Below are positions 9,212-12,176 of a DNA stretch of 25,348 nucleotides, piece by piece; within the stretch, counting starts at the first letter, position 1; every line of letters starts with the position of its first letter. This DNA comes from Candidatus Woykebacteria bacterium RBG_16_39_9b (GTDB lineage Bacteria; Patescibacteriota; Microgenomatia; Woykebacterales; RBG-16-39-9b). The notes below the pieces were generated by a model, which was given only the letters and a program-made list of their open reading frames with translations, was not told the DNA's origin and searched no databases. Position numbers and translations under genes: made by a program. The stretch is from NCBI GenBank assembly GCA_001816695.1, contig MHCR01000002.1:10353-35700 (forward strand), written 5' to 3'.

Positions 9212-10303
9212 GTGACGAAGAAAGATTATTATGAAATATTAGGAATATCTAAAACCGCTTCAGATACTGAGATAAAAAGTGCCTACCGGAAAAAAGCAAG
9301 AGCGCATCATCCTGATGTGGATAAAAGTGCTGACGCGGAAAAGAAGTTCAAAGAAATAAATGAAGCTTATCAAGTGCTTTCTGACCAGCAAAAAAGAGAA
9401 GCTTATGATCGGTTTGGTCATGATGCATTTGGTGGTGCCAGGCGGGGCACACCAGGCGGTTTTAGCTATCAATACGGCCCAGGAGTAGATGTAAACTTTG
9501 ATTTTGGCGGCTTTGCCGATCCGTTTGAAATATTCGAGCAGTTTTTTGGTGCTCGTTCTCCTTTCGGTGGTTCAGCAAGACGTGGCCCAAGAACTGGCGC
9601 AGATCTTCATTATGAAATAACTATCCCTTTTGAACAAGCTGCCTTTGGAACGGAGAAAAATATTGAAATTCCCAGACACGAAACCTGTTCGGAGTGTTCT
9701 GGCAGCGGTGCCGAAAAGGGTAGTAAGCCGGTTATTTGTCCGACTTGTCAGGGAAAAGGCCGTGTGCAACAGACAGCACAGTCAATATTTGGCAACTTTG
9801 TAACCGCAAGAACTTGCCCAACATGTGGCGGCAGTGGTGAAATTGTTGACAAGAAATGCCCTCTCTGTAAAGGTTCTGGAAGGATTCGTAGCCACAAAGA
9901 AACTACGATCAGGATCCCAGCCGGAGTTGATGATGGTGATACTATTCGCTTCCAAAGTCTAGGAGAAGCTGGAGAAAAAGGAGGCGGTTATGGCGATTTA
10001 TACCTTACAGTAAGAGTAGTTCCCCATAAAGATTTTAAGCGTCGTGGTTATGATATTTACTACGAGCAGCCTATTTCTTTTACCCAAGCAGCTGTTGGTG
10101 GTGTAGTGGAAGTGCCCACACTAGATGGAAACGTGAAGTTAAAAATTCCAGAGAGCACACAAACTGGAACAGAATTTAGACTTCGCGGAAAAGGTATAAA
10201 ACACGACAGCTCTAGAGGAGATGAGTTTGTTCAAGTCAAAGTAATTACTCCCAAAAATCTTTCCTCCAAACAAAAAGAAGCCCTAAAAGAACTAGAAAAA
10301 TAA
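9212..10303 (+). CDS. dnaJ: Chaperone DnaJ
   Basis: J domain with HPD, G/F-rich region and four CxxCxGxG repeats. SD GGAGGAG before the GTG start. Confidence 0.97.
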   Translation: MTKKDYYEILGISKTASDTEIKSAYRKKARAHHPDVDKSADAEKKFKEINEAYQVLSDQQKREAYDRFGHDAFGGARRGTPGGFSYQYGPGVDVNFDFGGFADPFEIFEQFFGARSPFGGSARRGPRTGADLHYEITIPFEQAAFGTEKNIEIPRHETCSECSGSGAEKGSKPVICPTCQGKGRVQQTAQSIFGNFVTARTCPTCGGSGEIVDKKCPLCKGSGRIRSHKETTIRIPAGVDDGDTIRFQSLGEAGEKGGGYGDLYLTVRVVPHKDFKRRGYDIYYEQPISFTQAAVGGVVEVPTLDGNVKLKIPESTQTGTEFRLRGKGIKHDSSRGDEFVQVKVITPKNLSSKQKEALKELEK

Positions 10304-10424
10304 AAAACGAGGCACAGTCAATTAAATGGTTGGTTGATGGCCAATCAAGTAAACGACATATGCCTCGCCCAAAGGGAGGTTTGAGCACAGTAAACGGCGG
10401 AAAGCCGGTTGATCTCTTTGTTGA

Positions 10425-10496
10425 AGCGGACGACGGGACTCGAACCCGCAACCCTCAGCTTGGGAAGCTGATGATCTACCATTGATCTACGTCCGC
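10425..10496 (-). tRNA. tRNA-Gly (anticodon CCC), CCA not encoded
   Basis: Full cloverleaf on the minus strand: GCGGACG/CGTCCGC acceptor, GATC/GATC D-stem, TCAGC-TTCCCAA-GCTGA, GCGGG-TTCGAGT-CCCGT, discriminator U. Confidence 0.95.
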
Positions 10497-10507
10497 TCTT
10501 CCGTTTT

Positions 10508-10583
10508 TGGTCGAGGGGAGCAAGTTAGAACGACAGACTTACGGTATGCAAGCCCAATGCTCCCCCCGCTGATTGTCTGGAGG
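10508..10583 (-). pseudogene. Degenerate tRNA-Ala(UGC)-like relic with encoded ACCA
   Basis: Gapless 76-nt tRNA register: D-loop AGCGGGGG, GAGC, anticodon loop CTTGCAT, variable AAGTC, G-TTCTAAC T-loop and ACCA at canonical spacing. The canonical stems no longer pair. Confidence 0.6.
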
Positions 10584-10916
10584 CCCGGTGGCACACTGGA
10601 TCTCAAATCCCCGCGAGCTAAACCACCAGGCCACGAAGCGGTTGCGATCATGGATATTGCGTCACCACCTTGCAATGGTGAGCACAGACCGCAACCGCCA
10701 GCAGAACAGCCCACAGAGTTGACCCACCGAGGCCCCGCTTGCCCGGAAGATCTTTGGTAGCACCCCAAGACTCTGTGGGTTTGTCCTCGAGTAGGAAATG
10801 AACCTACCGAATAATTGCTGGAGGCAGTGGACGAGCCTTAGGTGTTCGGGATACCTTCGCAGCTGCTGGGGGGAACAGCCGATCTCCGGTCCCTATGCGG
10901 CAACCCGTTCACTGCC
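10582..10916. ncRNA. Candidate structured non-coding RNA(s): tandem long GC-rich hairpins
   Basis: Stems 10582-10591/10623-10632, 10638-10646/10690-10698, 10710-10719/10770-10779, 10791-10795/10803-10807 and 10823-10829/10910-10916. About 58% GC over 10501-10920 by hand count. No credible ORF. Confidence 0.55.
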
Positions 10917-11014
10917 ATAACTTGAAAAGTTCTTTTGCCCTCTTCTTTGCTTCAATAGAAGCACTATTTTGCTTGCCTGTCAAGATATCCTTAACAAACA
11001 AGTTTTTATTTGTC

Positions 11015-11117: not shown

Positions 11118-12176
11118 ATGGCTTTAAGAACGGAATTTGCAGCTGCTTTAAATCAGGCTGCAGCTGAACGTGGGGTTGAACCGGAAGAAATTTTAAGAAT
11201 TATAGAAGAGGCTATAAAAGCCGCCTATAAAAAAGATTACGGTGGTGAGACTGAAGATTTGACTGCTGAAATTGATCCAGAAAGTGGAGAAGCTAAAGTT
11301 TTCAAAGAAGACAAAGATGTGACACCTCCGGGCTTTGGTCGAATTGCCGCTCAAACCGCAAAGCAAGTTATCCTACAAAGGATAAGAGAGGCCGAAAAAG
11401 AAGCAATTTTTGCGGAGTATGAAAAGAAGGTTGGTGCAGTGGTCAACGGAATGGTCCAAAGAATCGAGGGGGTAAATACAGTAATTGATTTAGGTAAAAC
11501 AGAAGCAATTATGCCGGCCCCCGAGCGTATGTCGGGTGAGGATTACCGGTTAAATCAGAGGTTAAAATTTTATATTGTTGGAATTCGTGAAAGTTCCAAG
11601 GGACCGGAAATTGTTGTTTCAAGAAGTCACAACGGGCTGGTGGAAGGATTATTTAAATTGGAGGTTCCAGAGATTGGAACAAGTATTGTTGAAATAAAAT
11701 CTATAGCTCGTGAGGCTGGAGCAAGAAGTAAAGTTGCAGTTTCAAGCAGACAGGCAGGTGTTGACCCAGTAGGGAGTTGCGTGGGTCAAAAAGGAGTTAG
11801 AGTTCAAGCTGTAATTGCCGAGCTTGGACACGAGAAAATTGACATAATTGCTTACAGTGATGATTCAGCCAAGTTTGTTTCAGCTGCACTTTCACCAGCG
11901 TCGGTGGATAAAGTTTCGATAGATGAAAAAACTAAGACAGCCCATGTTGAAGTTCCTGAGGATCAATTGTCTCTTGCAATTGGAAAGGACGGCCAAAATG
12001 TGCGTTTAGCAGCAAAATTAACTGGCTGGCGTATTGATATTAAGGGGGCCGAAAGAGTACAGGAAGTCGAAGAAGAAAAAGGAGCAAAACAAGAACCAAA
12101 AGATAAATCAAAATCTGCAAAAAAGAAAATCTTAAAAAATAATAGAAAAAAGAATGAAAAACCAAAAAAGAATTAG
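11118..12176 (+). CDS. nusA: Transcription termination/antitermination factor NusA
   Basis: FGRIAAQTAKQVI, REAGARSKVAV, ACVG-like SCVGQKGVRV and AIGKDGQNVRLAAKLTGWRIDI. Start moved to ATG 11118 after SD GAGGAGG. Confidence 0.97.
   Translation: MALRTEFAAALNQAAAERGVEPEEILRIIEEAIKAAYKKDYGGETEDLTAEIDPESGEAKVFKEDKDVTPPGFGRIAAQTAKQVILQRIREAEKEAIFAEYEKKVGAVVNGMVQRIEGVNTVIDLGKTEAIMPAPERMSGEDYRLNQRLKFYIVGIRESSKGPEIVVSRSHNGLVEGLFKLEVPEIGTSIVEIKSIAREAGARSKVAVSSRQAGVDPVGSCVGQKGVRVQAVIAELGHEKIDIIAYSDDSAKFVSAALSPASVDKVSIDEKTKTAHVEVPEDQLSLAIGKDGQNVRLAAKLTGWRIDIKGAERVQEVEEEKGAKQEPKDKSKSAKKKILKNNRKKNEKPKKN

Follow-up and report, generated by a model that had tools for sequence, protein, structure and literature searches.

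A tRNA-derived remnant predicted to fold as the last hairpin of a GC-rich leader upstream of tRNA-Gly(CCC) in a Candidatus Woykebacteria genome

The tRNA pseudogenes that occur beside working tRNA genes in bacteria resemble the remnant described here, in which the loop nucleotides, the spacing and the CCA end have been kept while the stems have been lost, and which lies uncalled in a tRNA operon. Unlike those pseudogenes, the remnant is GC-rich, has a stable alternative fold and is not a copy of the neighbouring tRNA. Neither is a mobile-element gene located near it, the only GIY-YIG match of the genome being a 426-aa frame elsewhere. With the minihelix and microhelix substrates of AlaRS and the tRNA-like domain of tmRNA, the remnant shares G3.U70, G2-C71, G4-C69, A73 and a single-stranded CCA. 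It differs from them in its C1-G72 pair and in having no T loop on a 12-bp stack, and any processing or charging of it is hypothetical.

The leader that ends in the remnant can be compared with two further kinds of RNA. As with the mascRNA of MALAT1 and MEN-beta, a tRNA-shaped element comes directly after a long structured RNA, whose 3′ end may be set by RNase P. Here, however, the signal would be a real tRNA-Gly gene and the organism is a bacterium, so that the likeness holds by analogy only, and the Rfam mascRNA model had no match in the window. Like the leader, an ncRNA of other Woykebacteria (L108, L189, L188 and L024) has the promoter, a position divergent from nusA, a high GC content and multiple hairpins. 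Unlike the leader, it ends in its own terminator and has no tRNA-like 3′ end.

The dnaJ-nusA gap and its relatives

The window analysed here is a stretch of 25,348 nucleotides from Candidatus Woykebacteria bacterium RBG_16_39_9b, a member of the Patescibacteria with a genome of ~0.6 Mb (92% complete), whose NusA and DnaJ are 76–83% identical to Candidatus Woykebacteria counterparts. Between dnaJ (9212–10303, plus strand) and nusA (11118–12176, plus strand) lies a gap of 814 nt that holds the remnant and in which tRNA-Gly(CCC) is the sole annotated feature. The GC content of this gap is 50%, and that of the leader and remnant 50–58%, versus 39% for the window. Read on the minus strand, the promoter is followed by the leader with the remnant as its last hairpin, the spacer, tRNA-Gly and a terminator-like hairpin with a T run (Table 1). 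The five ORFs of the leader island had no Pfam match, and Rfam searches at gathering thresholds and at E ≤ 10 matched known RNA families at tRNA-Gly only. An ordinary tmRNA and the RNase P RNA are encoded on other contigs of the genome, the latter scoring 72.8 bits against a gathering threshold of 100. With Rfam models, SRP RNA (RF00169, RF01854), 6S RNA and 16S rRNA were not found in the whole genome.

Table 1. Features of the locus, with positions in the window (for the ncRNA of relatives, in the respective contigs) and strand
Feature	Positions	Strand	Remarks
tRNA-derived remnant, 76 nt	10508–10583	−	tRNA register traceable between about position 12 and the CCA end; cloverleaf broken
Hairpin of 61 nt with single-stranded ACCA tail	10508–10568	−	predicted fold; MFE −28.7 kcal/mol, z −3.9
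11-bp helix, 5′ arm: former D loop and D-stem 3′ strand, CGGGGGGAGCA	10558–10568	−
11-bp helix, 3′ arm: former T-stem 3′ strand and acceptor 3′ strand, U at 70	10512–10522	−
Inner 8-bp hairpin with three G.U pairs and AUACC loop, including the former anticodon loop	10535–10555	−
A-rich 11-nt spacer, from ACCA to the first base of tRNA-Gly	10497–10507	−
tRNA-Gly(CCC), cloverleaf intact, 3′ end UCA instead of CCA	10423–10497	−
Leader of ~450 nt, GC-rich, about six long hairpins, the remnant being the last	10498–10948	−
Promoter-like TTGACA-N17-TTCTAT with TGn before the second hexamer	10955–10983	−	conserved in four other genera
Weaker of the two tRNA-like remnants; T arm good (GTAGG-TTCATTT-CCTAC)	10783–10863	−
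Likely terminator of the leader-tRNA unit: hairpin with a long loop and a T run behind it, abutting the dnaJ stop codon	10296–10366	−	by eye from sequence
ncRNA of relatives	L108:2147–2552 (−); L189:2324–2507 (+); L188:2270–2409 (+); L024:2371–2514 (−)

The 20 contigs of the NusA and DnaJ clusters and the four sequencing runs in which the locus was found all represent one near-clonal population, and the public runs that hold the locus are all DNA. The remnant was identical in all 12 population contigs that reach it and no variants of it were found in Logan contigs, while eight population contigs ended inside the leader. Background divergence within the population was 0.1–0.4% on the nusA side. 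Because nusA and infB themselves were equally invariant (0.1–0.4%), the invariance of the remnant is uninformative on selection, and low divergence was rejected as an argument for it. As a separate observation, dnaJ (9212–10303) differed by ~6% from its counterparts in contigs L201–L207, as opposed to 0.1–0.4% for nusA, infB and the intergenic RNA region. Judged by this sequence comparison, dnaJ is a recombinant patch with a putative mosaic boundary near the terminator, at ~10304–10422. Contigs L200 and L209–L216 ended at differing points inside the leader and L215 switched to unrelated sequence after the promoter, which suggests either structural variants or assembly trouble at this locus.

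Outside this population, none of 25 loci from other genera of the family contained a homolog of the remnant. Neither BLAST nor a structure model built on the last three leader hairpins detected a homolog among 21 genomes of the order; the only match, antisense to a tRNA in genome G015 (E 0.07), was rejected. At the same site, other genera carry tRNA arrays (Ala, Val, Thr, Trp, Pro, Gly, Asn), odd tRNA-like elements or ORFs. In G015, the place that is taken here by the remnant is taken by a tRNA, located 3 nt upstream of the tRNA-Gly counterpart as matched by its flanks.

The tRNA register and the lost cloverleaf

An earlier note on this DNA, made from the sequence alone, had described the minus strand of 10583–10508 as a relic of tRNA-Ala(UGC). 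The sequence quoted there and all of its sub-coordinates matched the window exactly, and the gapless identity of 42/76 to the E. coli tRNA, as stated in that note, was confirmed against the fetched alaT sequence. Across the whole genome, this level of identity to alaT was reached by 6 of 1,184,554 windows of 76 nt.

A gapless position profile was derived from 31 of the genome's own tRNAs and scored on ~1.18 million 76-nt windows. The remnant obtained +1.4 bits and ranked first of the non-tRNA windows, the next of which scored −10.4, and all 28 windows that outscored it were real tRNA genes. All other offsets within the leader scored −45 bits or lower. An nhmmer search of the 463-nt leader with the same profile yielded a single match (E = 0.044) in the same register, with GAGC at positions 22–25 and GTTC at positions 53–56. 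The tRNA signal stems from approximately positions 12–76 (TCAG, G18, G19, GAGC, U33, A37, GTTC, A58 and ACCA) and is absent from positions 1–9. Among the universal nucleotides in this register, A14, G18, G19, U33, G53-T54-T55-C56, A58 and CCA have all been kept, while U8, A21, R57 and C61 are gone. The loops keep most universal nucleotides and, in agreement with the earlier description, TGC occupies positions 34–36 (10550–10548) and the stems are broken, with 2/7 pairs left in the acceptor stem, 2/4 in the D stem, 3/5 in the anticodon stem and 3/5 in the T stem.

Pairing in this register is thus near random level and, because all four stems of the cloverleaf are gone, the remnant cannot work as a tRNA. 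The weak match to tRNA models that had been anticipated did not materialize: the Rfam tRNA model (RF00005) did not match the remnant at E ≤ 10, and ARAGORN left it uncalled even at 60% of its thresholds (-ps60). Profile rank, nhmmer register and alaT identity nevertheless support its origin well, and the remnant comes from a tRNA but has ceased to be one. A second tRNA-like remnant within the leader (Table 1) was called by ARAGORN only at relaxed thresholds, and is also an antisense match of Rfam family RF04354.

The hairpin, the leader and the tRNA-Gly unit

The 11-bp helix between 10568–10558 and 10522–10512, which had been proposed from the letters, was present in the minimum-free-energy fold, where it encloses the 8-bp inner hairpin and leaves ACCA single-stranded. 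The predicted 61-nt hairpin likewise agrees with the earlier note, except that its inner loop is AUACC instead of the suggested GUAA tetraloop. With −28.9 kcal/mol (z −3.0) for the 76 nt and the values of Table 1 for the 61 nt, this fold is as stable as the adjoining tRNA-Gly (−30.2), whereas the complementary strand reached only −17.8 kcal/mol (z −1.6). When the upstream 62 nt were shuffled, a 7-bp helix onto positions 66–72 arose in 1.2% of trials, and G2, G3 and G4 came to lie opposite C71, U70 and C69 in ~0.55%. Simulated random decay of the genome's real tRNAs gave an equally stable fold in 2–6% of cases and a helix of at least 11 bp in 1.6%. The hairpin is therefore unusual, yet could be within reach of a post hoc pick from many relics. 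An intrinsic terminator was rejected, as the hairpin is followed by ACCAAAAACGG without a U run and the terminator scan made no call there; the strand asymmetry in G.U pairs (20 versus 14) was set aside as too weak to serve as evidence.

The leader as a whole folded at −193 kcal/mol (z −4.45, versus −2.43 for the opposite strand). The promoter-like sequence in front of it aligned with counterparts in L108, L189, L188/L007 and L024, which represent four genera; a simple promoter scan misses it because its second hexamer lacks an A at position 2. In these four relatives, the predicted promoter precedes an ncRNA of 330–600 nt (Table 1), divergent from nusA, with two helices that display compensatory changes and an invariant CGCCGCACCCCC loop. 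This ncRNA has no Rfam match, and by BLAST it was present in only 3 of 14 genomes of the family. Homology of the leader to it was rejected, since a covariance model of the conserved core gave a best window score of 4.8 bits, on the wrong strand or in the wrong place. A mobile-element origin of the leader was rejected as well, as the genome contains no small GIY-YIG gene and the leader is single-copy in the genome and without internal repeats.

As to the tRNA-Gly that was described as intact, the 11-nt spacer and the cloverleaf hold, but its 3′ end reads GCU-UCA. It is the one exception among the 39 tRNA genes of this genome, the other 38 of which encode CCA, and a second Gly(CCC) gene with CCA is located at C14:20273–20347. 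Searches for a CCA-adding enzyme (PF01743) were negative in this genome and in 15 of the 17 genomes of the family, closed ones included. The tRNA-Gly of the window may therefore itself be crippled. In the haplotype of contigs L206 and L208, tRNA-Gly keeps its CCA, and its T loop is interrupted between nucleotides 57 and 58 (~10437 in the window) by a 35-nt insertion with two hairpins. T-loop insertions at the same site were seen in one tRNA of L106 and one of L007 (about 2225–2300), and such an insertion could represent an intron or a small mobile element.

We favour, with middling confidence, a model in which the tRNA relic has been retained as a structural or processing hairpin at the end of the leader. 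The remnant descends from a tRNA gene of the dnaJ-nusA gap, where the tRNA and ncRNA content changes fast, and as RNA it would fold as the 61-nt hairpin by pairing the G-run of the old D loop with the 3′ strands of the old T stem and acceptor stem. Transcription would proceed from the conserved promoter through the leader into tRNA-Gly(CCC). RNase P, cutting at the 5′ end of tRNA-Gly, would free the leader with its 11-nt tail, and exonucleases might shorten this tail as far as the hairpin. The role left to the remnant would be that of a generic 3′-terminal stability or processing hairpin and not that of an amino-acid acceptor. This model is favoured because the GC content of the leader, its folding z-score and the conserved promoter suggest an RNA that matters and, since the whole leader is rich in hairpins, a structural role of a general kind accounts for this one with no need for AlaRS. 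It is also in line with a significant tRNA register that no tRNA finder or covariance model accepts, and with a hairpin that is favoured on the transcribed strand. The relatives point the same way, as their promoter appears to precede a different structured RNA with compensatory changes and as tRNAs are found at the same locus. Against it, all runs holding the locus are DNA and homologs are confined to a near-clonal population. The missing CCA of tRNA-Gly also speaks against it, as it leaves room for a decay of the whole unit. Moreover, a helix that stops exactly at position 72 and places G2, G3 and G4 opposite C71, U70 and C69, at a shuffle frequency of ~0.5%, is more specific than a generic hairpin needs.

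The main alternative, which we consider rather unlikely, is neutral decay: the remnant would be the wreck of a tRNA gene whose whole operon is dying, and the hairpin a functionless by-product of chance. This would suit a locus that turns over quickly between genera, conservation that is limited to one population, and the simulated decay, which yields folds of this stability in 2–6% and helices of this length in 1.6% of cases. It would also suit a tRNA-Gly that has lost its CCA while a second Gly(CCC) gene exists: as the lineage is mostly without CCA-adding enzyme, the whole unit could be decaying and the hairpin with it be functionless. Neutral decay is harder to reconcile with a remnant and leader of 55–58% GC in a genome of 39% GC, and with folding that is far better than that of shuffles, especially for the transcribed strand. 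A helix that meets positions 66–72 exactly would likewise seldom arise by chance (0.5–1.2%), and the promoter is conserved across genera.

Isoacceptor ancestry and the alanine acceptor set

That the relic descends from a tRNA-Ala, as the earlier note had it, finds support in the TGC triplet, but over the whole length the remnant is closer to Pro(UGG), Arg, Val and Thr tRNAs of the genome and its relatives (38–42/76) than to the Ala-anticodon tRNAs collected from the family (35/76). Only this triplet, the C69-U70-C71 run and a D-loop motif point to alanine, and comparison with 116 tRNAs of relatives gave no consistent isoacceptor assignment. For the 3′ 33 nt, the closest counterpart (24/33) is a tRNA-like element that the relative G010 carries at this locus, and Pro(UGG) tRNAs come next. 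That element, 72 nt long and found at L027:2382–2453 on the minus strand (the same as L186, from genome G010), combines an acceptor stem of Pro type, still intact, with a D arm, a T arm and an ACCA end. Only a stub without an anticodon loop is left of its anticodon arm, and the element sits between GC-rich spacers upstream of tRNA-Gly(UCC).

These similarities raise the alternative that the helix is old, i.e. that a Pro-type tRNA (5′ CGGGGNG, 3′ CNCCCCG-ACCA) lost ~15 nt of its D arm. The seven outer pairs would in that case go back to the acceptor stem of this tRNA, with C70 changed to U, and the 15 nt upstream would have nothing to do with it. The 5′ arm CGGGGGG indeed resembles the Pro acceptor strands of this genome, G72 and A73 are bacterial Pro determinants (PMC9976931), the 3′ part finds its best match in the anticodon-less Pro-type element, and positions 1–9 of the 76-nt register lack tRNA signal. 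However, TCAG falls exactly at positions 12–15 and G18 and G19 are in place, and no other offset comes within 45 bits of the gapless window. With TCAG..GG..GAGC complete in that register, origin by a D-arm deletion is less likely than the gapless register, and we regard it as improbable.

A further alternative is that the hairpin has been exapted as an alanine acceptor. RNase P and exonucleases would release the 61-nt hairpin with ends at 10568 and 10508, AlaRS would charge it via G3.U70, and the product could serve as Ala donor, as decoy or as tmRNA-like tag. In bacteria, the Ala acceptor set consists of G2-C71, G3.U70, G4-C69 and A73 (PMC9976931). All of these, together with CCA, are displayed by the predicted helix, in an arrangement that arises in 0.55% of shuffles, whereas the first pair, which the earlier note had counted among the AlaRS identity elements, is C1-G72 and not G1-C72. 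The remnant furthermore has kept its ACCA while the neighbouring tRNA-Gly has lost its CCA, and AlaRS is encoded in the genome, a short way beyond the window (C2:35982–37268).

The structure, on the other hand, offers 11 bp and then an internal loop in place of a T-loop-capped 12-bp acceptor/T stack, and the 3′ strand is Pro-like. Identity rules in the family are themselves uncertain, and those for alanine may be unusual: a tRNA of L028 with a UGC anticodon, located upstream of nusA, has G3-C70, U5.G68 and G6.U67, and a tRNA with an Ala anticodon at L007:2038–2115 has C3-G70 and a bulged anticodon stem, so that both are without G3.U70. The check for an intact tRNA-Ala(UGC) elsewhere showed that the assembly has no tRNA-Ala at all. 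The rRNA operon usually carries tRNA-Ala(UGC). Since 16S rRNA and tRNA-Ile(GAU) are missing from this assembly too, the absent tRNA-Ala is explained by an rRNA operon that was left unassembled. The genome also has a normal tmRNA elsewhere, the homologs come from one near-clonal population, and the runs that hold the locus are DNA throughout. We accordingly regard charging of the hairpin by AlaRS as very improbable. If it did occur, a bacterium apparently without a CCA-adding enzyme would have a natural minihelix, distinct from tmRNA, that accepts alanine and terminates a structured RNA specific to its lineage.

Least credible of all is that a GC-rich hairpin without tRNA origin resembles a tRNA by chance: although the Rfam tRNA model and ARAGORN reject the remnant, its first rank among ~1.18 million non-tRNA windows, in a register set by the ACCA end, brings this explanation close to refuted, and the remnant lies beside a tRNA gene at a locus that holds tRNAs in relatives.

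As it stands, the element is a well-documented tRNA-gene remnant and an ordinary kind of object. If the hairpin is selected, it would represent a dead tRNA that was recycled into a new fold, with the old 3′ strand re-presenting the alanine identity set, and thereby a natural analogue of the minihelix substrates behind the 'operational RNA code'. The locus in any case offers entry points into the RNA biology of the ultra-small CPR bacteria, of which little is known, in the form of a conserved promoter with different structured RNAs per genus, a tRNA without CCA in a lineage that is mostly without CCA-adding enzyme, and fixed-site T-loop insertions in several tRNA genes.
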